A stretch of DNA of 64,000 nt, from the sequence record MN850597.1. The stretch is one strand, 5' to 3'. Position numbers and translations under genes: made by a program. Origin of the DNA: Escherichia phage isim. This document shows positions 1 to 28,484 of the stretch, one piece after another (the first letter of the stretch is position 1; each line of letters begins with the position of its first letter). The notes under the pieces are model-generated. The model was not told the origin of the DNA and made no database searches. It saw nothing but the letters and a program-made list of their open reading frames with translations.

Positions 1-242
1 TAAACCTGAATTATTTATAGAAAATACCACAACACCCATTAAGTCTTTGATTTTACACACAAATCCTACAGATATTCAACCTCCATATTTAACATACTTG
101 TAACATATTCCATACTCTACCTGTCTGATCAACTCACCCAACTACATCCTCCATATTTCCCCTGTCTGTACTACTCCTGCCCCGCCGGGAGTCCCGTCAT
201 ATCTGGCTTTCCAGCAAATATCACACCCACAAATATCATTGC

Positions 243-399
243 CTGAAGAGGGTTTCATCCCATAATACATGCCTTACCTGAAGAGCGCTTCATATACCAC
301 GTAAATTTTTTAATTGCCCCCTCCCCGCCGCCGGAGAGGTTGGCTTTTCCCACACAGACCTGAAGAGTCAGCCAGAAATATCTGAAGAGGGTCTAGTTC
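243..399. repeat. Four spaced copies of CTGAAGAG (243, 278, 359, 392) in non-coding DNA
   Basis: Direct reading: cctgaagaggg / acctgaagagcg / acctgaagagtc / atctgaagaggg; no ORF. Confidence 0.6.
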
Positions 400-945
400 T
401 GCCCTGTCATGAGCGGTAGCGACTGGAGTGCTGCCAGGCGGACGAAATGGGAATACTTCTCATTCTTATAACAATTCTCAAATATCGAGGCAGTGAGGCA
501 AATTAATAGGTGAGGCCGTTCACACAATGGCACAACATTTGCAACCTATTTTGTGGGGCTGAATGAGAATACCTATCATTGTGAGAATAGTTATCATTAC
601 GGGCAATTTAACATAATACCCATTATGCGCACCACTGGCGATACATACAGGGATTGATAACATGAGTTACCGTTTACGCACATAACAATTATATTTCTTA
701 CTATTTGTGTGGGATATAGTTAGCAGCCAATAGATTAGATATTAACCTGCGGACTTCTGACCGTCCAGACGTCTAAACGCCCACACAACAAGGGTTATAC
801 ATACACAACTGAATGTAAACAGGGCCGCAAAAATGCTACCATACCAGTTTGTAAATTTTCATGCAGCACTTGACAAAGAGGAGAAAAACTTGTCTGACAC
901 CTTATACACTTTCGACACAATAACGACTGTTATTATTTCATGTTT

Positions 946-1015
946 CACTGTTCACGTATAGATTGTTCCCGCATAGACTGTTTACGCCTGGATAGTTTAC
1001 ACCTTGACTGTTTAC
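946..1015. repeat. Iteron-like direct repeats GACTGTTTAC (976-985, 1006-1015) plus degenerate copies (946-955, 993-1000)
   Basis: Direct reading of three to four copies within 70 bp; non-coding. Confidence 0.6.
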
Positions 1016-1090
1016 ACAGATAGGATAAGCCATGACATTCGTTTGCATGAAAACAATTAGCAAGTTAACAATTAACAAGTTAATAATATA

Positions 1091-1155
1091 TGACATAATA
1101 TAAAAGCAGGGCAACTATTAGCAGATCTATAGTTGCCTTGCTTATTATGTCATGA
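1091..1155. repeat. Large imperfect inverted repeat (about 27-bp arms, 10-bp spacer) with extra GGCAACTAT and CCATTCGTTTGCAT copies nearby
   Basis: Left arm tgacataatataaaagcagggcaactat, spacer tagcagatct, right arm atagttgccttgcttattatgtcatga; CCATTCGTTTGCAT recurs near 1030 and 1262. Confidence 0.6.
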
Positions 1156-1937
1156 TTAACTGAATACAAGGCAACTATGATCTGATTAATAGATTGCAGA
1201 CAAACTATCACGGGGGTGATGGTTACTGCTTTTATATTATGTCGCGACTCCGTCGCGCCATGCCATTCGTTTGCATAGTTGCCTTATTGTTACAGATAAA
1301 ATAATTGTATTGTTAATTATTTCTTATCTTTCTCTTAGTCATCTAATGATTCCAGTCAGTATAGTAATGTACAGTAAACATTAGACGACTAAATATTTCT
1401 CTGTTTATGATAACTCACCGTGACAATTCCAGACTGTTTACGAAAAATGTTGACACCTGGGCCGATTTATGTTATGCAATTTAAACGAATAATTATTTTA
1501 TGCAGGTATTGACTATTCCATTATTCTATGGTTGGAATAAATGCTTAGCAGACTATAGAATGGTGAGCGTACGTAAATTCTGAGATCTGGCGGCTATAGT
1601 TATACTCGATTTTTCACGTAGAACACGCTTTTGTGAGTGTGTAAGTGTATGACTTATAAAGATTTTTAGTTGTTGACAAGATATTGAAGATGTGCATCAG
1701 GTTAAATTTTGTGCAATAGCGGCATTACGTGCAATTTTGAGAGAGAAAACGGGTAAAAATGGACCTGCTACCACACAATGAAAAATTATGCAATAGTTAT
1801 TTTACATGTATGTTTGTACAGTGTGTGGGATTGATGGCTAGACAATTATTCCACTTGCCAGGCTGGGCCGTTTGTGGTAGGAGGAAGAGCAGACAAAAAG
1901 AAAGGGGCCTAAGCCCCTTGATAATTCAGTTAAAAAA

Positions 1938-2357
1938 TTATAATGATTCGTATATTTCAAAAATCCGATTTGCCAGGTCGTTACGGTAGCGGAATTTTTC
2001 CTCACGTTTGATCATCAGATCTTTAAAGCCATATTCTTTAAGCACTTCATTAACTTTATGGCGGCATACCTTCATATTATCCTGTGCGTCACCAATAAAC
2101 CTGTTGCTATGGTGCATGGCTTTAATTTCTTCTTCCAGGACCAGGGCAACTATGCGGACCGGATCAAGCTGATAGGCGGTAACATCAATGCGGCATTGTA
2201 AACGGCTTTTTACGTCTGCCACCGGATATACTGCAACCTCTTCCCCGTCAACATTGACAATAATTAGTTTACCATCGATTTCGAATCCTTTCGCCGCCGG
2301 ACCGTGACAAAAAGCGTTATCAAAGCTATATGCCGGATTATTAGATTTAATGTTCAT
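1938..2357 (-). CDS. hypothetical early protein (139 aa)
   Basis: ORF with RBS AAGAGG upstream (minus sense); tandem minus-strand packing. Confidence 0.6.
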   Translation of the reverse strand: MNIKSNNPAYSFDNAFCHGPAAKGFEIDGKLIIVNVDGEEVAVYPVADVKSRLQCRIDVTAYQLDPVRIVALVLEEEIKAMHHSNRFIGDAQDNMKVCRHKVNEVLKEYGFKDLMIKREEKFRYRNDLANRIFEIYESL

Positions 2358-2500
2358 GGTGTTTTTACCTCTTAGTTAATTTTCTTACAACTTCCCTTCA
2401 AAAAGAATATAGCAAAACTGCCGATCCTTGTCAACCAAGGATAGCATAATTTTTATGTGATCAAGGGGCTTTATTGCCCCTGATCGTGCAACTTGTTGTA

Positions 2501-2764
2501 TTATTTGTTGCTCATCCAGTTTTCCCAGGCTGCCTGATAATCTGCCTCACTGCGGCGGATCTCTTCTTGCTCTTCAAGTCGGATCTCTTCTTCCAGGTAC
2601 CCCAAGATATCGGCTTTTTTGGTCTGGCGTAACATCCAATCATCTTTTTTACGGGTAAAGATCTTGTACGCTTTCTCGCAAACCTCTTTTTTGCTACCTT
2701 TTTGGACTTCAAGAACTTTGTAGGCCATGTACTGAACTAGTTTAAGCTGATCAAGACGTTTCAT
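2501..2764 (-). CDS. hypothetical early protein (87 aa)
   Basis: ORF; RBS AGAGG 7 nt before ATG. Confidence 0.6.
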   Translation of the reverse strand: MKRLDQLKLVQYMAYKVLEVQKGSKKEVCEKAYKIFTRKKDDWMLRQTKKADILGYLEEEIRLEEQEEIRRSEADYQAAWENWMSNK

Positions 2765-2824
2765 GATGTTTACCTCTTTGTGTGGTTCTGATTAGTGGGC
2801 CTCCCGGCCCGTGTCATTATCTTA

Positions 2825-3097
2825 TTACTTACGGCGGCAGAATTCAAGCGTTTTTAATTGATAATCTTCCTCAGCCTGGAGTACAACCGCCTCGATCATT
2901 TCGTTGGCATTGTTGAAGCCATACCCTTTAGCGAACTCGTCCGCACCACCTTCGTGATCATGTTCTGCGTTCATCGCTTCCACAAAATGGAATTCCAAAT
3001 TGTTGAGGTAGGGGCTTGATGTGCCGTCTTCTTTTTCGATGAGATCCCAAATAGCATTAAAACGTGATTCGACTTCTTGATTAATCCAGCTTGACAT
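2825..3097 (-). CDS. hypothetical acidic early protein (90 aa)
   Basis: ORF; RBS GAGAGGA upstream. Confidence 0.6.
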   Translation of the reverse strand: MSSWINQEVESRFNAIWDLIEKEDGTSSPYLNNLEFHFVEAMNAEHDHEGGADEFAKGYGFNNANEMIEAVVLQAEEDYQLKTLEFCRRK

Positions 3098-3315
3098 AGT
3101 GTTTTCCTCTCTTCTGGTTGTTGTGTGGGCACCTTTGCCCCTTCAAGATAAATGTTACCCCACCCCCTGGCAGATGTCAACGGTTTTTATAGTTCTTATA
3201 TGACAGGCAGGCCTGGTGATTGTCTCCACCTGTTCCCAAGTGCCGCCCGTTTAATAAGAATAGCAAAAGGGGCCGAACAAGTCAACCCCAAAATCAGTAC
3301 CAAAACACTTTTTAT

Positions 3316-3627
3316 TTATACTGTCCGGTCATTGGCCTTTGTCCAGGACCTGGCGATCCGTTTCCCAGTCACCTGGAACGGAGACTGCATTGTGTGTAAT
3401 GAATCCAGCGTAAGGGAGGACCGTTTACGGCGTATCTTCAGGATCGCCAATGTATTGTCCATCTCACGGCCAGGTCCTGGGCGGTATGGTGTGCCTCCAG
3501 CGTTAAGGTTGATGATCTCATGTATTGAGATCCGGCGTTGTTTTGCTTCCGCATCTTTGAAGATAGCCAGCGGAGGCGCTATGCGTTGCCGATACCAATC
3601 TAAAACGGTTGGCGTAATAGCGATCAT
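3316..3627 (-). CDS. hypothetical protein (103 aa)
   Basis: ORF co-oriented with neighbours; overlaps a likely spurious plus-strand ORF. Confidence 0.4.
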   Translation of the reverse strand: MIAITPTVLDWYRQRIAPPLAIFKDAEAKQRRISIHEIINLNAGGTPYRPGPGREMDNTLAILKIRRKRSSLTLDSLHTMQSPFQVTGKRIARSWTKANDRTV

Positions 3628-3815
3628 ATTTTACCCCCTATGTAGTCCGGTCGGTTTTTCTCTGTCATGCGCTTTAGCAATTCTTGCATGTTACTTATGG
3701 CTTGTAGTGTATCCTCTTCCAGGCTTGAATCGACATAATCAGGATCGTCTATGACCTTTCTATGATTATGATAACGCAGTACCGCCAATACCTTTCTAAC
3801 TTGTTCAGTATTCAT
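3624..3815 (-). CDS. hypothetical protein (63 aa)
   Basis: ORF; stop overlaps next start. Confidence 0.45.
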   Translation of the reverse strand: MNTEQVRKVLAVLRYHNHRKVIDDPDYVDSSLEEDTLQAISNMQELLKRMTEKNRPDYIGGKI

Positions 3816-3831
3816 TTTACATCGCCCTTAC

Positions 3832-4122
3832 TTATTGTTGGCGGTTTACGTAAGCTTTACCGTTTACCGTCATCGGCAAATCTTCCAGGTCTGGATCTTC
3901 CTTAAGGTCGCGAGCAAGTTCACCGCACCGGATACCCTCGAATCCGTAGTACTCTGTTGTACCGTCATTAAAAGTTTTAGTGGCAAGGCATAAGCGATAA
4001 GTAACCCCGATTCGATTGACGGCATGAATATCCGTTAGATTAACCTCTTTTGCCAGCTCATTAGCCATTGCAGGCGCACTAAGTCCAACAACCAGGGCAA
4101 CCACTGCGATCATCTTTTTCAT
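3832..4122 (-). CDS. small secreted/periplasmic protein with N-terminal signal peptide (96 aa)
   Basis: N-terminus MKKMIAVVALVVGLSAPAMA is signal-peptide-like; RBS AAGAGGA. Confidence 0.6.
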   Translation of the reverse strand: MKKMIAVVALVVGLSAPAMANELAKEVNLTDIHAVNRIGVTYRLCLATKTFNDGTTEYYGFEGIRCGELARDLKEDPDLEDLPMTVNGKAYVNRQQ

Positions 4123-4213
4123 TGTGTCTATCCTCTTTCTGCTACGTTTAAGGCGGCGGTAACCGCCTGTTTATGATTTGTTGGTTAATTTTCGGGTATC
4201 GGTATAAATTAAA

Positions 4214-4429
4214 CTATGCTGTACGCTCAACTATAACAACGGTTTGGGGGATCTCCCCTTCCACCACTAGTAAGGCCTTTTTCTGCGTGATAGATATCTT
4301 TACCCGTTGCAGCGTGGCGGTGAAGTCTTTCATTTCGTCACGCGGTGTTTTAGTGCAGTACCAGATCTCAGGCTTGCCGATCTGTAAGTTGCGTAAAAAT
4401 TCTGTTTTGCCTGTTTTGTTAGTGATCAT
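4214..4429 (-). CDS. hypothetical protein (71 aa)
   Basis: ORF in the minus-strand series. Confidence 0.4.
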   Translation of the reverse strand: MITNKTGKTEFLRNLQIGKPEIWYCTKTPRDEMKDFTATLQRVKISITQKKALLVVEGEIPQTVVIVERTA

Positions 4430-4438
4430 TTGCCAACC

Positions 4439-4543
4439 TCACCCGATACCGTTGGAAGACAAGATCATATTAGACATGGTTGCAATCAGGCCAATACCCA
4501 TGACAATAACCAAGATCACTGCATCGATTAATTTCTGTTTCAT
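4439..4543 (-). CDS. small hydrophobic peptide (34 aa, MKQKLIDAVILVIVMGIGLIATMSNMILSSNGIG), below ORF-track cutoff
   Basis: Hand translation; RBS AAGAGA upstream; one predicted TM helix. Confidence 0.4.
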   Translation of the reverse strand: MKQKLIDAVILVIVMGIGLIATMSNMILSSNGIG

Positions 4544-4620
4544 GGTGTTTATTCTCTTCTGTTAGTAACCTTATTCATGGGGCCGCTACCACAGCCCCAG
4601 GGTAAGGCAGCTATGTGCTT

Positions 4621-4866
4621 TTAGTGTTTCATTCCAACCATCGCGGCACGGATCGCCGTAGTGCTGTACTTGAAGCCGTCCGGGGTCTTATCTTGTCCGG
4701 TTAGCTCCAGAAAAAGCATCATATCCCGCGCCGCATCATTACGATTAGCATTGGCGTTAATAAAGCCTTGGGCCAACCGGTACAATGACTCATCGTTATT
4801 AATCCAAAGGCTTACATTCCAATGAGTTTTGTTTTTGTAACCGTTATAACCTTTATTGCTTTTCAT
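4621..4866 (-). CDS. hypothetical protein (81 aa; start moved to internal ATG)
   Basis: Strong RBS AAGAGGTAAACACC directly before ATG at 4866; the longer ORF start at 4947 lacks one. Confidence 0.5.
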   Translation of the reverse strand: MKSNKGYNGYKNKTHWNVSLWINNDESLYRLAQGFINANANRNDAARDMMLFLELTGQDKTPDGFKYSTTAIRAAMVGMKH

Positions 4867-4953
4867 GGTGTTTACCTCTTCTTTGTTCCAGGTGGCGGAC
4901 CATTCCACCGCCTTATGTATTATGCTTTGTAAGATGGCTGTTGTCAAACTATT

Positions 4954-5133
4954 TTAACGATAATCATCGTACGCTTTATTAACCTGGCGGATATAACATT
5001 CAAAAGCCAGATCAATAGATTTATATTCACGGATATACTTACCATAGGAAACCACATACATTTCTATAGCTTCCTCATATGCGAGGAGAATAGAATCTAA
5101 GCCTACGATCTCAGTCTTTGCAATAATAGCCAT
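4954..5133 (-). CDS. small protein (59 aa, MAIIAKTEIVGLDSILLAYEEAIEMYVVSYGKYIREYKSIDLAFECYIRQVNKAYDDYR)
   Basis: Hand translation; RBS AAGAGGA upstream; fills an otherwise empty gap. Confidence 0.4.
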   Translation of the reverse strand: MAIIAKTEIVGLDSILLAYEEAIEMYVVSYGKYIREYKSIDLAFECYIRQVNKAYDDYR

Positions 5134-5208
5134 GATTTTTATCCTCTTTGTAGTTGGTGGGGTTCGTTGCCCCCTTTGATTTATATATTACAGTCTTATA
5201 GGGTCATG

Positions 5209-5442
5209 TCAACTATTTTCAAAAAATTTTTCTGCTGTGATATTCTTCCCGGTAGGGTTCGCTACTTTCAAAATTTTATCATGCACTGGACGCCCAAAAG
5301 AATAAGCGCCGTACACAGTAAACCAATAATCGCCGTCAGGTTGTACTATTACTGCCGCATATGGTACGCCTTTTTCGTTTTTGCTGACAAAATAGATCAC
5401 GTTGCCATTAATAGCCTCGGCGCGTTTAATTTGTTCCATCAT
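5209..5442 (-). CDS. hypothetical protein (77 aa)
   Basis: ORF; RBS AGAGAGG. Confidence 0.55.
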   Translation of the reverse strand: MMEQIKRAEAINGNVIYFVSKNEKGVPYAAVIVQPDGDYWFTVYGAYSFGRPVHDKILKVANPTGKNITAEKFFENS

Positions 5443-5497
5443 GATGATTTGCCTCTCTTTATTTTCATAATTGGGGGCCTTTTCGGCCCCGCCAGGT

Positions 5498-5782
5498 TTA
5501 TTTATTGATAGCGTGCAGCGGGAAAGCTACGCCAGGTTGATAAATAACCTTTACAACCTCATCAGGACAAAAGAAGTTGCAGAACTCACCGCAATAGGCC
5601 TCATCCTCTTTCAACTCTTCATCAACATACTCAAAAAAGTAGTCGATGCTTGGATAATCCTGGCCGTGATTATAGTCAACCATCGTTAATAATAACTCTT
5701 GATCATTCCGTAGGATGTGCATACCCGCTTTTAAGTATTTTGCTTCCATTTCTACTACATCGCCAGCGGTAACAATAGCCAT
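5498..5782 (-). CDS. hypothetical acidic protein (94 aa)
   Basis: ORF; RBS AGGAG. Confidence 0.6.
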   Translation of the reverse strand: MAIVTAGDVVEMEAKYLKAGMHILRNDQELLLTMVDYNHGQDYPSIDYFFEYVDEELKEDEAYCGEFCNFFCPDEVVKVIYQPGVAFPLHAINK

Positions 5783-5984
5783 GATTTTAACTCCTATCTA
5801 TCTGGTCAACGATTGGGGGCCTCCCCCTCGACAACTCTTATTATCCATATTGTCGGGAATGATGCAAGTACTTCTTTAAAAATTTTTTAAGCGCCCCGTA
5901 TGCCGTTGTAACGCCAAAATAATAAAGGCCATGCAACCGCATGGCCTTTATGTGATTATATTGCTGCAGGCCCTGCTAGGGGCC

Positions 5985-6335
5985 TTATTTTACATTCTTG
6001 CCTGTATTGCCGCCACGGTACCAGCGTTTGCGGTGAAAATGGTAATAATCACCCTCGGCATTAAACATCAGATGATTTTCAATAACCAGCTTACGAAGGT
6101 GGGCCGGATCTTGTTCCATTCTTGCCAGATTCCGGCGGCTGTTACGTAAGCGTATAAATTCCATATTCAGGCCGTTGATTGCAGCATGGATGTCAAAGTA
6201 ACCACCTTTGAGACGTTCACGCATGGCGTTAAGCTCAACACAATATACAGATTTCTCACAAATCAAGGTATTAGCTAGGGCGCGGACCTGGGCAAGGGGG
6301 TTAAGCTCATTAAGGTAATATAGTTTGACTTTCAT
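5985..6335 (-). CDS. hypothetical protein (116 aa)
   Basis: ORF in series; weak RBS. Confidence 0.5.
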   Translation of the reverse strand: MKVKLYYLNELNPLAQVRALANTLICEKSVYCVELNAMRERLKGGYFDIHAAINGLNMEFIRLRNSRRNLARMEQDPAHLRKLVIENHLMFNAEGDYYHFHRKRWYRGGNTGKNVK

Positions 6336-6352
6336 AAAATCGCCTGCTGAAA

Positions 6353-6661
6353 TTAGTTTGAGAAAACATCGTTCACAATAGCGATCACAATGCCGCCCAC
6401 CTTGTCACGGTCAACAGTGCACAAATCACCATGGATCATGTGGTAGTCTGGATGATCTTTCACAGAATAGTCAATAAGTGTTTTCTTGTCATCCAGCTTC
6501 GTAACTTCCATTCTCATAACGATATGAGAATCATCAAAGGCATTATTCCGAAAAGTCATAGCCTGACCGCCAGGGCACCCGGTGATCTCCACTTCCACAC
6601 CATCTACGATCTGACCATCAAAGAAATAAAGATTATTAGCCTGGATAAACATGTCTATCAC
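6353..6661 (-). CDS. hypothetical protein (102 aa)
   Basis: ORF; RBS AAGGAG; preceded by palindromic promoter module copy 1. Confidence 0.6.
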   Translation of the reverse strand: MIDMFIQANNLYFFDGQIVDGVEVEITGCPGGQAMTFRNNAFDDSHIVMRMEVTKLDDKKTLIDYSVKDHPDYHMIHGDLCTVDRDKVGGIVIAIVNDVFSN

Positions 6662-6696
6662 TCCTTGTTAACTGCGTGGTATTTTAACAGGGTTTA

Positions 6697-6745
6697 AATT
6701 TACTTTATCGATGGCCCTGAAGTCAAGGCCATCTAAAAATAAATT
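6697..6745 (-). promoter_or_regulatory. Conserved promoter/operator module copy 1: palindrome GATGGCC-N10-GGCCATC overlapping a -35 TTGACT, N18, -10 TAAATT
   Basis: About 48-bp near-identical sequence at three sites; sigma70-like hexamers on minus strand about 36 nt upstream of the 6661 start. Confidence 0.55.
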
Positions 6746-6946
6746 TTACAGGCCTACAATCTCTTTGATTCGTTTAACTGCTGCCTCAGCGCCTTGGGGG
6801 TAGAAATTATGATAACCAATCACGCGAGTGATACTAATCGCCGTTTGATGATCTTCATAGTCGCCCTTGAAGATTTCTTGACCGTCAATCAGCACGGCAA
6901 TTTTTTCTTCTTTTTTGAAGTTAATAACGCGGATATTGTTGCTCAT
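6746..6946 (-). CDS. hypothetical protein (66 aa)
   Basis: ORF; RBS AAAGGAG. Confidence 0.55.
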   Translation of the reverse strand: MSNNIRVINFKKEEKIAVLIDGQEIFKGDYEDHQTAISITRVIGYHNFYPQGAEAAVKRIKEIVGL

Positions 6947-7084
6947 TTTGTTTCTCCTTTCTGGTTTTTGTGGTGGTGGGGATTAGCTCCCCGTTGATTG
7001 TTATTATCCACATTCCGGACCGGATTGCAACACCCCGGAAGAAAAATTTTTTAAAAGATAGGCCCCCATGATCGGGGGCCGCTC

Positions 7085-7204
7085 TTAGTTACTTACAGCG
7101 ATAAAGTACATCCCTACGCCTAACAATATTTCAAGGGCGATAATCTCAAGCCATACCATAACACGGCGCACCTTATCAGCGCATGGCTTATCCTTGGTTG
7201 TCAT
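7085..7204 (-). CDS. small membrane peptide (39 aa, MTTKDKPCADKVRRVMVWLEIIALEILLGVGMYFIAVSN)
   Basis: Hand translation checked codon by codon; RBS GGAGGG upstream; hydrophobic C-terminal half. Confidence 0.4.
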   Translation of the reverse strand: MTTKDKPCADKVRRVMVWLEIIALEILLGVGMYFIAVSN

Positions 7205-7224
7205 CGTCTCCCCCTTCCCTCCTG

Positions 7225-7464
7225 TTAGTAGTGACGTGGTTTACAATGGCCCCCAGGAGTCCTATCACCACGCACACCACAAGAAAAATTATCTCCGCTG
7301 TTGTTCGATCCATTGTTATAAAATTCCTCAAGATCAGGCCTGAAAATAAAGCGTTCGTTATTGAATCCGTCACGCCAGGCGGCTGGCTTCAAATCTTCAC
7401 TAAAGGGATTAATTAACGTGGCGTTATTTAAACGGCTGGTCCACATATTTTCTATTCCTCTCAA
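7225..7464 (-). CDS. hypothetical protein (79 aa; frame and start uncertain)
   Basis: ORF with RBS GAGAGGAA; competes with an overlapping alternative-frame ORF (7188..7373). Confidence 0.3.
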   Translation of the reverse strand: MRGIENMWTSRLNNATLINPFSEDLKPAAWRDGFNNERFIFRPDLEEFYNNGSNNSGDNFSCGVRGDRTPGGHCKPRHY

Positions 7465-7795
7465 ATAGGCGATCCGCTTCAGTTAAACATATCTCATGGG
7501 CTTGGTCTCTGGTTTTAGCCTCATCAAAAACCTGTTGTGCCAGGCTGCAGCGTAGGGAGACTGGAAGATCACTATAATAGGCGTTGACAAACGTTTGTGC
7601 GTCATACAGGTCGGAAAACACTTTACCCTTTCTATTATCGCCCTTGTCAACAATTGCAAGGATAACCAATACAATAGTTGCAACCACTCCCAGGAAAATA
7701 GATATAACAAACCATAGAAAAGCGGATCTACCTATCTTGCCAGCGATCCAGGCGTTGAACAAGGCAACTACTACAGCCAAAATAATAAATTCCAT
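7424..7795 (-). CDS. membrane protein, two predicted TM helices (123 aa; start moved to MEFIIL)
   Basis: RBS AAGAGG before internal ATG at 7795; the longer ORF would overlap the upstream gene by 70 nt. Confidence 0.55.
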   Translation of the reverse strand: MEFIILAVVVALFNAWIAGKIGRSAFLWFVISIFLGVVATIVLVILAIVDKGDNRKGKVFSDLYDAQTFVNAYYSDLPVSLRCSLAQQVFDEAKTRDQAHEICLTEADRLFERNRKYVDQPFK

Positions 7796-7859
7796 TCTAT
7801 GTACCTCTTTTGCAGTTCTGTTTAACAATAAGGCGGCAAATATGCCGCCTGTTACCTGA

Positions 7860-8240
7860 TTAAAAATTATCGCCGTAAATCTTTCCGCTTTCTGCCCACA
7901 CCACCACGCGGGGCATGTTATCCCATACATCTTGTTTCAGATTTAACGCGTGCAATTCTTCGGTGGTGCTCATACCAGGCACGGGCTGATTGTATACTGC
8001 AAAACGACCACCTGCATAATCATAGGCCAGAGTTAAATCACACTGAATCATCTTTTTGATCATGGCGTTAAGCATAGCGTTAGCCGCATACTGGTCACGT
8101 TTTAAAGGCAACTCTTTGATTAGTTTGCGATAGTTTTCAATGTGATCGCACACTGTTTCACGTGGAAGATCTTTCATATCTTCACGGAATGTAACCAGGT
8201 TAAACATAACGGTGTCAATAGCTTTAGTAGTGTTTTTCAT
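7860..8240 (-). CDS. hypothetical protein (126 aa)
   Basis: ORF; RBS AAGAGGAA. Confidence 0.6.
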   Translation of the reverse strand: MKNTTKAIDTVMFNLVTFREDMKDLPRETVCDHIENYRKLIKELPLKRDQYAANAMLNAMIKKMIQCDLTLAYDYAGGRFAVYNQPVPGMSTTEELHALNLKQDVWDNMPRVVVWAESGKIYGDNF

Positions 8241-8294
8241 GATGTTTTCCTCTTTGTTTTGTGTGGGGGCAAACGTCTTGCCCCCTTGAGTTTT

Positions 8295-8322
8295 AATATA
8301 GCAGGTTTTTAGGTTATTGCAA
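8295..8322 (-). promoter_or_regulatory. sigma70-like promoter (-35 TTGCAA, N16, -10 TATATT) followed by 5' hairpin GGGGGCAAGACGTTTGCCCCC
   Basis: Hexamers read on minus strand; hairpin sits between the -10 and the RBS of the 7860..8240 gene. Confidence 0.5.
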
Positions 8323-8330
8323 CACTTTAT

Positions 8331-8954
8331 TTATGAAAAAGTCATCTCACCATATTCATCGACATCAAACCGCCAATCATTGGCCTCGATAAGGCCGATC
8401 AGGTTTTCTGCGGCGAACTGTTCTAGATAGGCCTCCTCCAGGTCTACGTAAACCTTGCGGGATAGCTCCCGTACCGTCTCGGTGATCAGTTCTTCCAGGT
8501 CTTCCACTTTGTTTTCTTGTTTGGCGGTCAGGTCTAGCCATGTAGTATCGATGTACCCGCTTACAGTGTTTTCGTGACTATAACGGCTATATGGATCACG
8601 CTCAACACTTGCGGATAGCTCGCCATCGTGCATTGTGCCGAACAAGTGACGAATTGAGCGGAATTTAGTCAGAGACTTGACTTTACGCAAGAATTTTTCT
8701 AAATCCACGTTTTCCGCACTGATTGATGCGCCGTCGCCCTGGCACCAAAAGCCGGACCAATGTACTTCGGTATCTTCAAGGCCATACTCTGGAAAGATAT
8801 ATTCTTTATAGTCTTCAATTACACTTTCTGCAAAAAAGTTATCCCCGCTGTGTTCTTCTCTTTCGCGGACCATTTCAACGGCTTTTTCTTTTTGTTCGTC
8901 GGTCAGCACGTCGAAAGCTAAATTGTAACCTGTGGTAATGTTAACGGTGGTCAT
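8331..8954 (-). CDS. hypothetical acidic protein (207 aa)
   Basis: ORF with RBS GGAGAA; preceded by consensus promoter. Confidence 0.65.
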   Translation of the reverse strand: MTTVNITTGYNLAFDVLTDEQKEKAVEMVREREEHSGDNFFAESVIEDYKEYIFPEYGLEDTEVHWSGFWCQGDGASISAENVDLEKFLRKVKSLTKFRSIRHLFGTMHDGELSASVERDPYSRYSHENTVSGYIDTTWLDLTAKQENKVEDLEELITETVRELSRKVYVDLEEAYLEQFAAENLIGLIEANDWRFDVDEYGEMTFS

Positions 8955-9011
8955 GATATTTTCTCCTGTTTTCTTTGTTAGTGGCGGGAAGTTTTCCCGC
9001 CTGTGTGTTTA

Positions 9012-9039
9012 ATTATACTTATTGAGATTTACTTGTCAA
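9012..9039 (-). promoter_or_regulatory. Near-consensus sigma70 promoter (-35 TTGACA, N16, -10 TATAAT) followed by 5' hairpin GGCGGGAAAACTTCCCGCC
   Basis: Plus 9034-9039 tgtcaa and 9012-9017 attata read TTGACA/TATAAT on minus; hairpin at 8985-9003 lies before the RBS of the 8954 start. Confidence 0.6.
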
Positions 9040-9289
9040 CACTATTTTTTAAATTATTGTGGCGCAAAATGTTTAAAATCTCCTCAACGTCATCAACACG
9101 GCGGCAATTTTTAAACGCTACCAATTGCCCCATGATTTTAATCACTGGGCGGCCTTGCCAGTGCCCCTGAAGAAAGCGCGCTTTGACTTTATCGGTGGAA
9201 CTATCACGCCACCAAATAGCCTTGTTGTTGCAGTAGTAAAAATTATTCAGGATAACATCAACTTTATCAAAATTTTTTAATTTACGCAT
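9029..9289 (-). CDS. hypothetical protein (86 aa)
   Basis: ORF; RBS AAAGGAG. Confidence 0.55.
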   Translation of the reverse strand: MRKLKNFDKVDVILNNFYYCNNKAIWWRDSSTDKVKARFLQGHWQGRPVIKIMGQLVAFKNCRRVDDVEEILNILRHNNLKNSVDK

Positions 9290-9506
9290 GGCGTTTACTC
9301 CTTTCTCTCTTTGATGTGGTTAGTATAGCTAACCTGTTGACGATGTCAATGATATTTTTAACGCCATAAAACGGCCCTGGGCGATGTTTTCAGGTTAAAG
9401 GGGCGATTGCATAGGTGGGGGCCTTTTTGGCGCTTACAGGGCCAACCAGGGGCGCTATTCGTAGGATAGAAATAAAAAGCCCCGCACAATGGCGGGGCGT
9501 TGGTTG

Positions 9507-9704
9507 CTATTTGTCTTTGTGGCGGTATCGTTCCGCTTGTCGTTCACGTTCCAAAAGTAGGCCCGGCAATTTACGATCATAATGATTCCGCCAGATCTTC
9601 CCAAACCTTTTTGGCTTATTCAGTTTATTGTTACGCTGGCGGCGTTCTGGCAGCTCTTCGGAATCATGAGGGCGCTTTACAATTTTCTCGAAATTAATTT
9701 TCAT
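9507..9704 (-). CDS. small basic protein (about 65 aa; start uncertain)
   Basis: Lys/Arg-rich ORF; internal ATG at 9704 preferred. Confidence 0.4.
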   Translation of the reverse strand: MKINFEKIVKRPHDSEELPERRQRNNKLNKPKRFGKIWRNHYDRKLPGLLLERERQAERYRHKDK

Positions 9705-10047
9705 ATATTCCCCCCTTGCTAACTTCAATATTGGCCTGAATAGCCCGGATACGGCGCTTTATAACTTCCTGATCTGTGTGGTCGTATCCCCAAAAGTCTA
9801 CAATTTTTGCGCCCCCCGCCTCCAGGCGGTATAGTGTTTCCTGCATTTTGTAAGCCGGGATCGGTCGCGGTGTTACTTGGTCACCTTCTTTATTTTTATA
9901 CTTTATAATATAATCTTCGTTATCGTTGAATGCCCAAAATGGATATTCTGCAAGGGCGGTACTTCCTCTTTCCTTTTTATCCTGGATCTTATTTACAATT
10001 AAAGCCGTAGCAATAGCGCCAATGATAAAACTAGCCCCGCTGATCAT
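9694..10047 (-). CDS. N-terminally membrane-anchored protein (117 aa)
   Basis: N-terminal hydrophobic helix MISGASFIIGAIATALIV; RBS AAAGGAG. Confidence 0.55.
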   Translation of the reverse strand: MISGASFIIGAIATALIVNKIQDKKERGSTALAEYPFWAFNDNEDYIIKYKNKEGDQVTPRPIPAYKMQETLYRLEAGGAKIVDFWGYDHTDQEVIKRRIRAIQANIEVSKGGIYEN

Positions 10048-10121
10048 GTACTTTCTCCTTTCATGGTGTTAATAAATTATCTTTATAGATGGCCCTGCAG
10101 CCAGGACCACCGAAAAAATAA

Positions 10122-10367
10122 CTATTTCACAATGCCTACAAAACAGATCCCGCCTTCACCTATATAAGCAATATCGGTCACTTTATAACTTGTCAAGATC
10201 TGTTTATTCAGTTCATTAATAAAATCGGTCATTGCGTTGGTGTAGTTGTCTTCCGTGTCTAAGGCATAATCCCAGGTGTACACCTTTTTACGTCCGAAGC
10301 CTTTTACCATGATACGGGCGCTTTTGGTGTTGGTAGGGGCATAATATTTGGTGATTAGTGCTGCCAT
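10122..10367 (-). CDS. hypothetical protein (81 aa)
   Basis: ORF; RBS AGAGGAG; preceded by palindromic promoter module copy 2. Confidence 0.55.
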   Translation of the reverse strand: MAALITKYYAPTNTKSARIMVKGFGRKKVYTWDYALDTEDNYTNAMTDFINELNKQILTSYKVTDIAYIGEGGICFVGIVK

Positions 10368-10407
10368 GGTTTTAACTCCTCTGTATTGGTTAAGTGTTAA
10401 CAGTCTA

Positions 10408-10456
10408 AAGTTTACTTTATTGATGGCCCTGAAGTCAAGGCCATCTAAAAATAAAT
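10408..10456 (-). promoter_or_regulatory. Conserved promoter/operator module copy 2 (-35 TTGACT, N18, -10 TAAACT inside the GATGGCC/GGCCATC palindrome)
   Basis: Same 48-bp element as 6697-6745; about 40 nt upstream of the 10367 start. Confidence 0.55.
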
Positions 10457-10798
10457 TTACTCGTTTTCTTCCAGTTCTGCAAGCTCTTCTTTCACTTCTT
10501 CCAGCTCTGTCTGCAATTCTTGGTACTCTTCATCGTCCTCAATATCCAGGCTGTCGATGTAGTCGCTAAATCCGCAGCGGTAAGCGATAGGATCTAGCTC
10601 CTTGAGGATACGCGACGGAAGAAAAGAAATGTTTCCGATCATAATTTCGCCGTAGATCTCGTCTAACCATTCATCATAGTTTTCGTCGTACTTGTCCTCG
10701 TCGATTTCAAAGTTATCGATCTTATTCTCAAGGTCTGCGATCTGTTTTTTCAGGGCAGCGATCTGAATAGCTTTTTCTGCGGCGGTCATAGTGGTCAT
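10457..10798 (-). CDS. acidic coiled-coil protein (113 aa)
   Basis: ORF rich in E/D with heptad-like segments; RBS present. Confidence 0.55.
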   Translation of the reverse strand: MTTMTAAEKAIQIAALKKQIADLENKIDNFEIDEDKYDENYDEWLDEIYGEIMIGNISFLPSRILKELDPIAYRCGFSDYIDSLDIEDDEEYQELQTELEEVKEELAELEENE

Positions 10799-11027
10799 GG
10801 TGTTTTCTCCTTTTGTGTGTTCTGGGAAGTTTTCCCGTTGATGTGTTTAGTATACCGATCTAAGTTAGCTTGTCAATTAAAAGTTTAAGAAAAATTTTGC
10901 GACACCGTTGGCGCTACCCATCAACATTTGCGCCAGGATATAACCAATGATGCAAACGATAATAGTTACCTTTGTGTGCTGGCGTGTAGTGCTCATCTTC
11001 AAGCCTCCTTTTAGCTTAACTGGGATT

Positions 11028-11076
11028 AGTTTACTTTATTGATGGCCCTGGCGTCAAGGCCATCTAAAAATAAACT
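11028..11076 (-). promoter_or_regulatory. Conserved promoter/operator module copy 3 (-35 TTGACG, N18, -10 TAAACT)
   Basis: Third copy with one substitution in the palindrome (ctggcgtc vs ctgaagtc). Confidence 0.5.
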
Positions 11077-11471
11077 CAGTAAGTTTTCAGTACTTTCCCG
11101 TCCAACCTGTCTAACTGAATCTCAATAGCTGCAGAAAACCTATTGTAAACCACATCGCCCAGGGAGTCCAGCCAATCTATGACGTTATACACCTGCTCTT
11201 TATTCTTGCAAGTCCGGATCCGTTTCATTACGTAAGACGGATCAATATTAGTACTCCCGTTGTTGTGGTCATGCGCCTGGCCTGCTGCACTGGTTATAGA
11301 TTTTACAACCACCTGAAAGGGCTTTAAGGTGCCTTTTGCGTTCATCTCACGCGCTTTTGCGGCGCGGTTGTTATATGTTACACAACGGCGGCAAATGTTG
11401 AATAAATGCATGTCAATAATTTTTTCATCGTTTGCCAGTTCGTTCATGATGCGGCGTACGTTCTTATTCAT
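11076..11471 (-). CDS. hypothetical protein (131 aa)
   Basis: ORF with RBS; upstream 5' hairpin GGCGGGAAACATCCCGCC. Confidence 0.6.
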   Translation of the reverse strand: MNKNVRRIMNELANDEKIIDMHLFNICRRCVTYNNRAAKAREMNAKGTLKPFQVVVKSITSAAGQAHDHNNGSTNIDPSYVMKRIRTCKNKEQVYNVIDWLDSLGDVVYNRFSAAIEIQLDRLDGKVLKTY

Positions 11472-11516
11472 AGCTTTTCCTCTGTGTTGGCGGGATGTTT
11501 CCCGCCTTTTGTGTCT

Positions 11517-11544
11517 AGTTTACTTGAATTTTGCAGCGTGTCAA
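11517..11544 (-). promoter_or_regulatory. sigma70-like promoter (-35 TTGACA, N16, -10 TAAACT)
   Basis: Hexamers read on minus strand upstream of the 11471 start. Confidence 0.45.
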
Positions 11545-11551
11545 CAATTTT

Positions 11552-11950
11552 TTATTCGTGGGCACATGTTACAATGTGCTTTTTATAGCCCAGGTGGGCA
11601 GCAAGTGCCGCCAAAAACTCATCTTCATAGATCCAGCCGTTGGCAGTGATCCCCATAGCATTTAATGCGCTCTCAAGTGCTGCGTTAGCTTTATCATAAC
11701 CGTGACCGCTCGCCTTGCCGCCAGTATAACCGTACTTATTGTTCTTGTTGTCGTGTATCCAAAAAACGCAGTAGTTAGTGTTACCGCTGGCGGCGGCATA
11801 GTACCGGATCTCCGCTACTTCGTGCAAATTATTATCATCGTCCAGGCCAACCAGATTATAAGCCTTGTAAAATCCACGATCACGGCGGCAATTCTTAACA
11901 TCAGAAAAAGAGAAGTCGGCATTGTCAAAATTAAAGGTTGTAGTTTTCAT
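11552..11950 (-). CDS. hypothetical protein (132 aa)
   Basis: ORF with RBS; consensus promoter upstream. Confidence 0.6.
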   Translation of the reverse strand: MKTTTFNFDNADFSFSDVKNCRRDRGFYKAYNLVGLDDDNNLHEVAEIRYYAAASGNTNYCVFWIHDNKNNKYGYTGGKASGHGYDKANAALESALNAMGITANGWIYEDEFLAALAAHLGYKKHIVTCAHE

Positions 11951-11982
11951 GATTTTATCCTCTTAGTGTCTTTTGTGATTTA

Positions 11983-12011
11983 AGTATATTTTGTGTCAGA
12001 CTACGTGTCAA
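11983..12011 (-). promoter_or_regulatory. sigma70-like promoter (-35 TTGACA, N17, -10 TATACT)
   Basis: Plus 12006-12011 tgtcaa and 11983-11988 agtata read TTGACA/TATACT on minus. Confidence 0.5.
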
Positions 12012-12014
12012 TAT

Positions 12015-12212
12015 TTATTTTTTATTAAACCAGTGGTTGATCTGACCTTTTGTCAGGGCGCAACGGTTAAGCTGTTGCAGGGTATAGCTATGACCGCGAC
12101 GAAATTTATAAAGGCCTTGCCCGTTGTTGATGGTTACATCCACCCGGCAAATCACTTGGTCGGTGACCACCTGGCGAGTGTTGCGACGTACTTTGATTCC
12201 GTATGCGTTCAT
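12015..12212 (-). CDS. hypothetical basic protein (65 aa)
   Basis: ORF; RBS AGAGAGGA. Confidence 0.5.
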   Translation of the reverse strand: MNAYGIKVRRNTRQVVTDQVICRVDVTINNGQGLYKFRRGHSYTLQQLNRCALTKGQINHWFNKK

Positions 12213-12296
12213 GATTTTTATCCTCTCTGTTAATTGGTGTGGTGTTGTTCACCTTGCGAGGATAAGAATAACAAGAACTGTCCGAGCTGTCAACCA

Positions 12297-12473
12297 TTAG
12301 TTAAAATTATTTTTTGGGTAGAATTCTCCAGCCGCCGCCCCTGCCAGGTTAACCATCATTTTTTCGTACTCTTCTTTATGTTCCAACGCTCCCACCATAG
12401 CCTTTTCAACCAGGGCGATAGCCTCAGCGTCATTAATAGCTACATTTTCCAGGGGGATCATATTACCTTCCAT
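12297..12473 (-). CDS. small protein (58 aa, MEGNMIPLENVAINDAEAIALVEKAMVGALEHKEEYEKMMVNLAGAAAGEFYPKNNFN), first gene of the early block
   Basis: Hand translation checked; strong RBS GAGGAGG 8 nt upstream; overlaps a likely spurious plus ORF. Confidence 0.45.
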   Translation of the reverse strand: MEGNMIPLENVAINDAEAIALVEKAMVGALEHKEEYEKMMVNLAGAAAGEFYPKNNFN

Positions 12474-12656
12474 TTTTGTACCTCCTCTTCAATTGTTACC
12501 TATCCTATAGCATAGGCCCACCAGGTTTGCAAGCCTTCATTATCTCCTACCTGGTCAGTTAGGCCCTGCCAGGCTGGCCCCGCCAGGTTGCAGCGGTCAG
12601 CGCATCAGGTTAGAAATTTTTTTTTTGAAAAGTGTTGACAGCGGCCCCGCCAGGTG
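12337..12656. repeat. Cluster of GGCCC(C/T/A)(G/A)CCAGG repeats (12337, 12515, 12562, 12576, 12643; one more at 5485)
   Basis: Direct reading of a 12-13-mer recurring five times within 320 bp. Confidence 0.55.
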
Positions 12657-12900
12657 GCAAAATACACCTATCGAAAGGACGGCAGGCACCGGTGACGGGG
12701 GAGACAACCACCGGGGATGGGCGCTGCATGAAATGAGAACGATTATCATTATCGTCTAAAAATTTATGCAAAAACTTCTTGCTTTCTTTGTCCTGTGTGT
12801 TACTATAATAACAAGCCGGGGCAGTAGGGGCCGGGAGACAATCACCGGGCCTGCCCGTTATTCTGCAAACGAGAATGATTATCATTCAAAATTCTAAATG
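12635..12900. repeat. Two tandem copies of a structured non-coding unit (core GGGAGACAAYCACCGGG ... CTGCA-AAA-GAGAAYGATTATCATT), each with a Fur-box-like palindrome
   Basis: Units at about 12647-12760 and 12812-12900; plus-strand TTGACA at 12635 and TATAAT near 12809 precede them; GAGAACGATTATCATTATC at 12735-12753 matches 16/19 of the classical Fur-box consensus. Confidence 0.5.
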
Positions 12901-13059
12901 AGAACTCCTCGCATTTAATAAATTTAATTAGCACGCTAATTACCCTCCGTAACAATTTCCTATAAAATAGTCTCCACTAAAATATTCCCATATAGAAATT
13001 TTAAAAATCCATTTCTGAAAACGAAAAATCGATTTCGTCCCCAAAAATTTCAGGTCGAG

Positions 13060-13200
13060 AGCCGGAACGATTTCCAGAAAATCCGATTCAGAAAACGAAA
13101 AACAGATCGAGTACTGAGAAATTTATCGAGAAAAATTTTCAGAAAATCCAAGCCATGAAATGAAAAGTAGATCGAGTACTGGAAAAATTGTACCGCAACT
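13060..13200. repeat. AT-rich tandem direct repeats (about 52-bp unit: CAGAAAATCC ... GAAAA ... AGATCGAGTACTG ... GAAA)
   Basis: Two near-complete copies plus a partial copy; no ORF. Confidence 0.5.
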
Positions 13201-13419
13201 CACTGATAGTGATGGGTTTTCCGTCATAAATCAATAAGGGTGAGTGGAGAAAGGTATGGTGGAGAGGTGTGTATGTGTAGGAAATCTGGAACGGTGATCT
13301 CGAATATGGTGCAAACGGCTAGATAGGTTGGCACAATTTTCCGCGCCTGTGTTGAAAAAATCCATTTTAGTTTTCGATCCATTTTCTGATTTTCTAAGGA
13401 TTTTAAAATATCCTGGTAG

Positions 13420-13485
13420 GTAAAATATCAAAAGGAGGAAATCCATTTTAGAAATCCTCCTGATCTCTGGCAACCTGATAACTTA
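13420..13485 (-). terminator. Intrinsic terminator(s) ending the minus-strand middle block: hairpin GGAGGA-N15-UCCUCC followed by a U-rich tract, and an adjacent CCTGATA/TATCAGG hairpin
   Basis: Inverted repeats read directly; the U-run follows the first hairpin on the minus strand after the 13491 stop. Confidence 0.45.
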
Positions 13486-13490
13486 AAATA

Positions 13491-13823
13491 TCAGGCTCCC
13501 AGTGTGTTCTTTCCTTTATACAACCGTAAGGGTATAGTTTTTGTAACAGTCCATCTCCCCAGCCCTTCCCAGTTCCAGTTGTAGGCATGGTACCCGGTTA
13601 CGCATGCACTGCTGGAGTGATCATAGGCATAAGAGAACGCTATACGCACCAAATGAAACCAGTCTTTCCACGGTTGTGGTCCGTAAGCTTTTCTCCAACA
13701 CCGACACAAGCTAAATGTCTCAAGAATAGGCAGGATAACAAATCCATACACCGCCACCAGAATAGCCAACGCAATGATTGTCAGGAATACATACCCTGCA
13801 GTTGAAACGATGATCTCTGTCAT
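13491..13823 (-). CDS. membrane protein (110 aa)
   Basis: N-terminal hydrophobic segment VFLTIIALAILVAVYGFVILPIL. Confidence 0.5.
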   Translation of the reverse strand: MTEIIVSTAGYVFLTIIALAILVAVYGFVILPILETFSLCRCWRKAYGPQPWKDWFHLVRIAFSYAYDHSSSACVTGYHAYNWNWEGLGRWTVTKTIPLRLYKGKNTLGA

Positions 13824-28001: not shown

Positions 28002-28484
28002 TTAAACCCGGATACCTATTGTATACTCGGTGGATACCAATGTCAAATCTAAATTTAAAATTTCTTGCATCTCATAATATGCGTCCAGGGTGAGATACAT
28101 TTCCCCATCCTTTTCTACATACTTGTCCAAGTGCTTGAGGCATTTCGGATAACTATCGAGTGCAGCTTTCAGACACTCAAACTCTGTGCTGTTGATGAGT
28201 CCTTCCATCTTGGCTACCCGTTCTGGGGTAACGATAGCACTGTAGTGAGATTTAGCTTCCTGAATGCAATGGGTCCAAGCATCAACTTTCTCTTCGAAAA
28301 GCCCGAAGAATTTCTTTTTGGTGAGCTTCAGATTCTTTAAGTGCTTAAGCACTCGGTTGCCGATCACAGCCACATCACGAAACTTAAGGATCACTTTGTC
28401 GATATCCTCGCGGCCTATTTTCACAAAGCAAGCCTCACACATTTCAGGAGCTGCGTAACCTACTTTCCACATAAAATCTGACAT
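28002..28484 (-). CDS. hypothetical protein (160 aa)
   Basis: ORF in series. Confidence 0.55.
   Translation of the reverse strand: MSDFMWKVGYAAPEMCEACFVKIGREDIDKVILKFRDVAVIGNRVLKHLKNLKLTKKKFFGLFEEKVDAWTHCIQEAKSHYSAIVTPERVAKMEGLINSTEFECLKAALDSYPKCLKHLDKYVEKDGEMYLTLDAYYEMQEILNLDLTLVSTEYTIGIRV

Follow-up and report, generated by a model that had tools for sequence, protein, structure and literature searches.

Why should a run of small phage genes carry, time after time, a short GC-rich hairpin close behind its promoters? This question is raised by positions 1938-12473 of the stretch of Escherichia phage isim analysed here (record MN850597.1; all 64,000 nucleotides (nt) of it are called the window), a block of small minus-strand genes in which near-consensus sigma70 promoters, stem-loops and strong Shine-Dalgarno (SD) sites recur as cassettes. 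The feature is real, non-random and conserved, and it is best described as a system of the promoter-early stem-loop (PeSL) type in a new phage family, with a distinctive position of the stem-loop on the predicted transcript. In our favoured explanation, which we consider reasonably probable, the block is a hyperplastic early region built of PeSL-type cassettes, the transcribed 5' stem-loop stabilises the messenger RNA (mRNA) and the cassettes serve as crossover points.

A probable early gene block in an rV5-like phage

Judged by its sequence, the window is Vequintavirus (rV5-like). A megablast search of the block against phage records gave 302 matches, the best being Vequintavirus coliphages with 95-97% identity over the full length; all genes under these best matches are annotated 'hypothetical', and the block matches open reading frames (ORFs) 164-197 of rV5. 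A protein-based search of IMG/VR found just two further close relatives. The initial annotation had put the number of small minus-strand genes at about 30, and ORF and SD calls indeed gave 30, each with an SD site before it. Gene content is fluid: at 90-97% genome identity, several of these genes are found in some phages and missing from others, and relatives differ by whole-gene replacements and by insertions or deletions (indels). In the paper on the rV5 genome, 33 sigma70-type promoters and 20 terminators were predicted for the genome as a whole, and hairpins after promoters go unmentioned.

A consensus scan of the block found 38 promoter-like sites, against 24.6 +/- 5.5 in shuffled sequence, and 11 of the 12 matches at 10 or more of 12 positions lie on the gene strand. 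About 18 sigma70-like promoters can be recognised on that strand by pattern match only. The 20 nt upstream of their -35 hexamers are 75% A+T (57% in the block). The three promoters quoted in the initial annotation are exact (TTGACA-N16-TATAAT at 9012-9039, TTGACA-N17-TATACT at 11983-12011 and TTGCAA-N16-TATATT at 8295-8322); the second has no hairpin. The ribosome-binding site (RBS) context AAGAGG(T/A)AAAC(A)(C/T)C-ATG also recurs, as repeat family D3.

Hairpins at a fixed distance from the -10 element

Compact hairpins, defined by a folding energy (dG) of -6.5 or lower and a start 3-14 nt after the -10, were counted against composition-preserving (dinucleotide) shuffles of each leader. They follow 8 of the 16 intergenic promoters, where 0.8 would be expected, and one further unit has a weaker hairpin (-4.0). 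In eight of these nine units (Table 1) the hairpin starts 9-12 nt downstream of the -10, and in the remaining one 5-6 nt. The 5' arm is G-rich and the 3' arm C-rich, the stems have 4-11 base pairs (bp), and a U-poor, CA-rich leader with a strong SD follows. Across the hairpins of the window, loops and stems are heterogeneous (AACA, AAC, GACGT, GCTAA, AGG, GAAAA and others), with variable arm length and spacing. Elsewhere in the window the same arrangement was found at none of about 44 comparable promoter-like matches.

When start sites are predicted from the -10, those of the nine units fall at 11510, 10842, 9004, 8287, 6995, 5832, 5177, 4912 and 3144 on the minus strand, and the transcripts begin with 0-6 unpaired nt (median 3) before the hairpin. 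U makes up 10.9% of their leaders, compared with 24.5% of the block, and the SD is mostly unpaired. The initial annotation was right in seeing promoter-hairpin-RBS cassettes but overstated their spread in speaking of many genes, as the full triad precedes only 9 of the 30. Among the hairpins that it placed between -10 and RBS, those at 8983-9001 and 8265-8285 do lie there; the one at 5474-5490 is intercistronic and has no promoter, and the fourth, at 7061-7080, is a terminator.

Outside the block, the strong promoter match TTGACA-N17-TACAAT at 28018-28046 (minus strand) is followed 21 nt later by a highly stable hairpin, GGCCCTGCCCGAAAGGGTGGGGCT (-19.2), a spacing unlike that of the early-block cassettes.

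Stem-loops that enclose the -35 hexamer

A second class, absent from the initial annotation, encloses the -35 hexamer: it was found at 7 of the 18 promoters, with 1.1 expected. Three of the seven are copies of a 51-nt repeat, cassette B, whose fourth copy is degenerate. These three share one layout, a T-rich tract, then GATGGCC-TTGACTTCAG-GGCCATC, then TAAAGTAAAC, and cassette B has no U tract behind it on either strand. U-rich tails follow two of the other -35 stem-loops, at 3269-3289 and 2419-2446.

The composite terminator/promoter at 3257-3289 is directly followed by a non-coding segment of about 60 nt (3195-3260, minus strand) with a stable predicted fold (-21.3 kcal/mol, z = -2.6). A recognisable counterpart exists in Phapecoctavirus ESCO13 (L003), within the 254-nt spacer that precedes the gene with its start at 1317, and the segment may be a small RNA.

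Conservation within the genus and in other genera

Across the window and 10 other Vequintavirus loci, comparisons that are not phylogenetically independent, 4.9% of stem sites differ, against 26% of loop sites and 8.4% of sites in the flanking leader, the loops evolving about five times faster than the stems. The hairpin variants of the orthologues have a mean dG of -8.4, whereas random mutants with equal numbers of changes reach -5.0. Pairing persists where stems are altered: in unit 6 (5815-5827) GGGGG/CCCCC becomes GGAGG/CCTCC in orthologues, a G-C to A-T change on both sides, and other stems are re-written yet paired (8265-8285 in naam, 11489-11506 in MiataMamis, 4151-4168 in EduardKellenberger). 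In orthologues of unit 1 the hairpin is kept with a different loop or inner stem, and at 2797-2810 the loop varies between GGGA, AAAA and GAAA. The evidence for structure consists of per-sequence folding and of this comparison of orthologues: a column-wise count among the latter, limited by indels in the hairpins, gave no strict compensatory pairs, and RNAalifold found no structure in a MAFFT alignment of 43 elements, as variable loop lengths shift the 3' arms out of register. Rfam had no match to the window at gathering score and one chance-level match (E = 0.28) in 1-13500.

The arrangement extends beyond the genus. We compared the early blocks of five genomes, namely the window, ESCO13 (Phapecoctavirus), inny (Justusliebigvirus), Salmonella phage SSBI34 and Pectobacterium phage P7_Pc (Certrevirus). 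Among 95 units with promoter, SD and ATG, 47 carry a hairpin, against 6.7 expected from shuffles. In 42 of the 47 its start lies 9-11 nt beyond the -10, whereas between 14 and 31 nt separate it from the ATG; the tight offset at one end and the loose distance at the other tie the element to the promoter and start site and not to the RBS. The 5' arms of these hairpins contain 230 G and 64 C. Units in the four other genomes are often far more regular (TTGACA-N16/17-TAAnaT, gTATCACrTAG, GGCGG...CCGCyC, an A/C-rich leader, SD), and a blastn search with one such unit found 776 places in 157 phage records.

The hairpins could be bound by a phage or host protein. This might be an RNA-binding factor for antitermination or arrest, as in the N/Nun-boxB systems, or a dimeric DNA-binding repressor for which they would be operators that shut off the early promoters. 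Phapecoctavirus and Justusliebigvirus do show a conserved sequence for the element, CACrTAG-GGCGG...CCGCyC with loops that often read AATrGT, and its place at about +4 to +25 is one where a repressor would act; lambda-type nut sites likewise place a small hairpin soon after an early promoter; the loop at 5474-5490 even reads GAAAA. In the window, however, stems, loops, arm length and spacing vary as described above, the loops are the fastest-evolving part, and the GAAAA hairpin has no promoter. A boxA (CGCTCTTA or GCTCTTTA) beside a boxB-type hairpin was not found, and GCTCTT occurs nowhere in the block. We therefore regard protein binding as quite improbable. Two candidate motifs were also set aside: ...CCGCTCAyAAC of ESCO13 as a boxA, since its GCTC belongs to the stem and the motif is missing from the window, and a CsrA site (GGA in some loops, by eye), since the loops vary freely.

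Relation to the promoter-early stem-loops of T4-type phages

The closest known systems are the PeSLs, described in the T4-type phages RB49 and phi1 and later in PST/T4 and nt-1/KVP40 (Arbiol et al. 2010, PMC2839356; Comeau et al. 2014, PMC4122927). Their stem-loop occurs in any of five positions, among them around the -35 and after the -10; PeSLs cluster between the ORFans of hyperplastic regions, and they were proposed to be promoter-plus-terminator units that also act as crossover sites for modular shuffling (PMC2839356, PMC4122927). Every sequence-level property of PeSLs that we examined (promoter, AT tract, stem-loop, SD and start codon, ORFan clustering, breakpoints) is present in the block. 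In both systems an AT-rich upstream tract, a near-consensus sigma70 promoter and a G-run/loop/C-run stem-loop precede the SD and ATG; the stem-loop lies around the -35 or after the -10; the cassettes cluster among small ORFans in a hyperplastic region; and indels and replacements between close relatives break inside them.

Three differences stand out. The phages belong to another family, here the Vequintavirinae with the sister subfamily Stephanstirmvirinae. The dominant position in the window is 9-12 nt after the -10, at the predicted transcribed 5' end, whereas the stem-loops of RB49 and phi1 lie mostly between -35 and -10 or over the -10, and those of PST upstream of the promoter. Finally, unlike PeSLs, the post -10 stem-loops are not followed by a U tract. 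Our literature search found no paper that mentions PeSLs together with rV5-like phages. The description of the cassettes in the initial annotation fits well, but this kinship and a role as recombination sites had escaped it.

Breakpoints and module exchange

Direct comparison of relatives places indel and replacement breakpoints at -35 hexamers (9344/9327, 5207, 4939 and 3268) and in leader/RBS repeats (2774-2788 and 4563/4852). Between the -35 (9344-9349) and the -10 (9322-9327) of one promoter, MiataMamis and an IMG/VR relative carry a 587-nt module of three small ORFs with TTGACA at both edges. The Vequintavirus NHEP1 follows the window up to the TTGACA of unit 7 (5207-5212) and then continues with TAAGATGTATCACATAGGGCGGGAAATGGTTTCCCGCTC, a cassette typical of Phapecoctavirus; this switch indicates an exchange between subfamilies at the -35. 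Phage rV5 lacks the gene 4621-4866, the promoter, hairpin and RBS of unit 8 being joined directly to the next gene, and two copies of the leader/RBS repeat at 2774-2788 flank its inserted ORF166. Breaks recur at position 3268, where the composite terminator/promoter stem-loop has its edge. The -35 breakpoints offer a concrete and testable route for gene exchange between Vequintavirinae and Stephanstirmvirinae.

These observations also bear on the idea that the hairpins have no function as RNA and are DNA-level parts of recombination modules, for instance cruciform-prone palindromes, which persist through duplication of the cassettes. The cassettes do form repeat families (unit 2 belongs to family D4), indels break within them, sense and antisense strands fold equally well, and PeSLs were proposed as recombination sites, with one crossover mapped inside a loop (PMC2839356). 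The breakpoints in the block, however, lie at -35 hexamers and leader/RBS repeats and not at hairpins. Moreover, the hairpin sequences differ widely between cassettes, which does not favour homologous exchange, yet pairing and position are kept, and the loops change some five times faster than the stems. We consider a purely DNA-level role improbable.

A proposed stabilising 5' stem-loop on early messages

Our favoured explanation assigns the stem-loop a role on the transcript as well. A structured 5' end hinders RppH and RNase E and so stabilises E. coli mRNA; the long-known stabilising effect of 5' structures arises because RppH, like RNase E with its 5' sensor, depends on a 5' end that is single-stranded (PMC3997798). 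The 5'-terminal stem-loops of the ompA and papA mRNAs are stabilisers of this kind (Emory, Bouvet, Arnold, Bricker, Belasco, as cited in PMC3997798). The units resemble ompA in that a stable hairpin lies a few nt from the predicted 5' end and is followed by an unstructured leader and a strong RBS; they differ in being a repeated, portable module on many short phage messages, whose 5' ends and stabilisation are predicted. The hairpin that starts the leader of T7 gene 10 is a comparable 5' structure.

In the mechanism that we propose, each cassette would run from the AT-rich tract through the near-consensus sigma70 promoter, the G-run/loop/C-run stem-loop and the U-poor, CA-rich leader to the strong SD and the small gene. 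Where the stem-loop starts 9-12 nt after the -10, as it does at about half of the promoters, it would fold within 0-6 nt of the 5' end of a presumably early mRNA and, as in ompA, deny a single-stranded end to RppH and to the 5' sensor of RNase E; the U-poor leader would offer few RNase E sites, and short early messages could last longer. In RNA read through from upstream, the post -10, the promoter-less intercistronic and the -35 stem-loops might act as internal barriers or attenuators. The repeated cassettes, in turn, would be crossover points for insertion, deletion and exchange of modules, even between phage subfamilies. Stabilisation of the 5' end is the best-supported function of the post -10 hairpins, and a plausible one that we infer from predicted start sites. 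The initial annotation had mentioned such an effect, and the anatomy fits it: 0-6 nt to the predicted 5' end, a U-poor leader and an unpaired SD.

Several points weigh against this explanation. Three promoters in the block, and many in SSBI34 and Certrevirus, have no associated stem-loop, and some orthologues have a mismatch in a stem. The constant offset from the -10 could partly reflect common descent, the cassettes being paralogues. The two strands look alike, with G-U and A-C pairs about equally frequent and similar folding energies; the G-first bias of the arms is uninformative on strand because the reverse complement of a G-run/loop/C-run hairpin is likewise G-first. A literature search on rV5-like and Phapecoctavirus phages found no transcriptome, start-site, half-life or termination studies. 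Lastly, one RB49 PeSL stem-loop reduced expression of a lacZ reporter as strongly as rrnB T1, and its authors read such stem-loops as terminators (PMC2839356).

This last reading, shared by the GenBank annotators, is the main rival: the stem-loops would be terminators or attenuators for RNA arriving from upstream, insulating each small gene. Besides the lacZ result, it can draw on the records of relatives, as the ASO2A record calls these hairpins 'rho-independent terminator (WebGeSTer)' right behind promoters, and Murica labels two cassette B copies 'terminator'. Like intrinsic terminators, moreover, the hairpins are short and GC-rich, and the -35 stem-loops at 3269-3289 and 2419-2446 have U-rich tails. 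The post -10 hairpins, on the other hand, are followed by CA-rich sequence with a mean of 1.1 U per 8 nt, against 5-7 in the real terminators of the window, and cassette B has no U tract at all. They also lie downstream and not upstream of a promoter, where efficient termination would abort that promoter's own message, and their position, tight relative to the -10 and loose relative to the ATG, speaks for the 5' end. As they lack a U tract, the post -10 hairpins appear not to be terminators, contrary to the GenBank labels, and we hold the terminator reading to be unlikely, though it deserves to be taken seriously.

Stem-loops of these kinds are labelled rho-independent terminators in ASO2A (L018; 1278-1342 and 1758-1830) and in Murica (L001; 7272-7316 and 10659-10703), even where they follow an annotated promoter by about 10 nt and have no U tract, and such labels are probably a systematic mis-annotation in this phage group.

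Two further roles had been raised in the initial annotation. Termination of antisense (plus-strand) transcription finds some support in a terminator scan, which lists 8983-9001, 8265-8285, 11489-11506 and others on the plus strand. The antisense tails of the hairpins, however, are interrupted and U-poor (mean 3.7 U per 8 nt, well below the 5-7 of real terminators; UAUGUGAU in sister genera), what U-richness there is being a by-product of the A-rich start region, and no strong plus-strand promoter within the block is directed into it, while a single strong match on that strand in the vicinity (12635) faces away. Antisense termination is therefore very improbable. Processing by RNase III would have its analogy in the intercistronic hairpins of the T7 early region. 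RNase III substrates span about two helical turns, some 20 bp of double-stranded RNA; with 4-11 bp the stems fall short of this, and we give this role hardly any credence.

A bolder extension of the stabilising 5' stem-loop, which we mention as a long shot, sees the fixed-position hairpin as a 5' tag dedicated to early phage messages, either sparing them from a host-wide mRNA decay boosted by the phage or read by a phage factor that times early shut-off, with promoter, hairpin and leader traded between subfamilies as one portable module. The sequence conservation of CACrTAG-GGCGG...CCGCyC in the sister genera is in line with such a tag. In T4, Srd stimulates RNase E. The rV5 paper calls gp11 a probable Srd homologue, and the counterpart of gp11 in the window is the gene at 40270-41246 (plus strand), the first of a divergent plus-strand unit. 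Its protein has an HNH endonuclease as best PHROG match (E = 1.7e-110), ahead of 'decoy of host sigma70' (2.5e-12) and 'Srd anti-sigma factor' (1.6e-9), and no match in Pfam; we set the Srd link aside as weak.

If the favoured explanation, a PeSL-type block with stabilising 5' stem-loops, is true, mobile regulatory cassettes of this type are not peculiar to T4-type phages and represent a more general route by which large lytic phages express and shuffle small accessory genes. The stem-loop of rV5-like phages, lying on the transcript itself, suggests a role in mRNA survival, and dozens of 'rho-independent terminators' right after promoters in therapy-relevant phage genomes would probably be mislabelled. 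The compact promoter-hairpin-leader units are also ready-made, naturally varied expression parts for E. coli.

Features of the block and its surroundings

Table 1. Cassettes, stem-loops and terminators in and around the early block. Coordinates are those of the window; folding energies (dG) are given in brackets.
Feature	Position	Strand	Promoter	Stem-loop (dG)	Gene or remark
Hyperplastic early block	1938-12473	-			30 small genes (34-207 amino acids), function unassigned; ORF and SD calls, relatives' records, whole-gene indels and replacements
Unit 1	11472-11544	-	11517-11544, TTGACA-N16-TAAACT	11489-11506, GGCGGGAAACATCCCGCC (-12.8)	CA-rich leader and SD; gene 11076-11471
Unit 2	10799-10876	-	10849-10876, TTGACA-N16-TATACT	10824-10836, weak, GGGAAAACTTCCC (-4.0)	gene 10457-10798
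Unit 3	8955-9039	-	9012-9039, consensus, TTGACA-N16-TATAAT	8983-9001, GGCGGGAAAACTTCCCGCC (-13.1)	gene 8331-8954
Unit 4	8241-8322	-	8295-8322, TTGCAA-N16-TATATT with TG	8265-8285, GGGGGCAAGACGTTTGCCCCC (-14.4)	gene 7860-8240
Unit 5	6947-7039	-	7003-7030, TTGCAA-N16-GATAAT	-35: 7014-7039; post -10: 6978-6992, GGGGAGCTAATCCCC (-7.8)	gene 6746-6946
Unit 6	5783-5867	-	5840-5867, weaker, TTGCAT-N16-GATAAT (8/12, by eye)	5815-5827, GGGGGAGGCCCCC (-7.8)	gene 5498-5782
Unit 7	5134-5212	-	5185-5212, TTGACA-N16-TAATAT	5159-5174 (-6.9)	gene 4954-5133
Unit 8	4867-4947	-	4919-4947, TTGACA-N17-CATAAT	4890-4913 (-12.9)	SD context AAGAGGTAAACACC; gene 4621-4866
Unit 9	3098-3180	-	3152-3180, TTGACA-N17-TAACAT	3127-3140, GGGCAAAGGTGCCC (-6.8)	gene 2825-3097
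Cassette B, reference copy	6696-6746	-		GATGGCC-TTGACTTCAG-GGCCATC, enclosing -35 (-16.3)	T-rich tract before, TAAAGTAAAT after the palindrome
Cassette B, copy 2	10408-10458	-			96% identical to reference copy
Cassette B, copy 3	11027-11077	-			86% identical to reference copy
Cassette B, copy 4	10074-10124	-	no recognisable -35		degenerate, 75% identical
-35 stem-loop promoter	2406-2446	-	2406-2434, TTGACA-N17-TATATT with TG	2419-2446 (-13.0)	no post -10 hairpin; gene 1938-2357
Composite terminator/promoter	3257-3289	-	TTGACT-N17-TATTCT, -35 in loop	3269-3289, GGGGTTGACTTGTTCGGCCCC	followed by TTTTGC
Stem-loop around TTGCAA	12514-12536	-			weak case, p = 0.07; upstream of the block's first gene
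Promoter	12265-12293	-	TTGACA-N17-TATTCT	none associated	promoter scan and hairpin tests
Promoter	11983-12011	-	TTGACA-N17-TATACT	none associated	promoter scan and hairpin tests
Promoter	9322-9349	-	TTGACA-N16-TATACT	none strong	promoter scan and comparison of relatives
Intercistronic hairpin	5474-5490	-	none	GGGGCCGAAAAGGCCCC (-13.2)	loop GAAAA; 31 nt before ATG
Intercistronic hairpin	4578-4599	-	none	(-16.2)	34 nt before ATG
Intercistronic hairpin	4151-4168	-	none	(-11.0)	28 nt before ATG
Intercistronic hairpin	2797-2810	-	none clear	GGGCC-GGGA-GGCCC (-10.0)	32 nt before ATG
Intrinsic terminator	9479-9498	-			ordinary; 7 T in 8-nt tail
Intrinsic terminator	7061-7080	-			ordinary, with U tract; upstream of unit 5
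Intrinsic terminator	5922-5951	-			ordinary; upstream of unit 6
Terminator-like intercistronic hairpin	7831-7850	-			5 T in tail
Terminator	1902-1919	-			at block end

No transfer RNA genes were found in the window. Beyond the end of the block, at positions 1-1900, all ORFs are short and both strands carry them; the Murica record has one 195-nt gene and two terminators there, and the region may be the counterpart of the stretch marked 'non-coding' on the rV5 map.

The non-coding DNA upstream of the block contains, at 12735-12753 (minus strand), the sequence GATAATGATAATCGTTCTC, which matches the 19-bp Fur-box consensus with 2 mismatches (0.03 expected per window) and overlaps a possible promoter, TTGCAT-N18-GATAAT. 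A weaker Fur-like copy was seen by eye about 130 nt further upstream, near 12868-12886; an iron-responsive site would be unusual in a lytic phage. The 15-nt motif CCGGTGRTTGTCTCC occurs three times (0.19 expected), at 12700-12714 and 12834-12848 on the minus strand and at 3213-3227 on the plus strand, each copy inside a GC-rich imperfect palindrome and two of them just downstream of the Fur-like sites. Further upstream, three adjacent A/T-rich non-coding units (GAAAATCC...GAAAACGAAAAA) occupy 12991-13189. Each measures about 60-65 nt, and their identity to the reference copy is 65-77%; these repeats are iteron-like and could represent an origin or a regulatory array.

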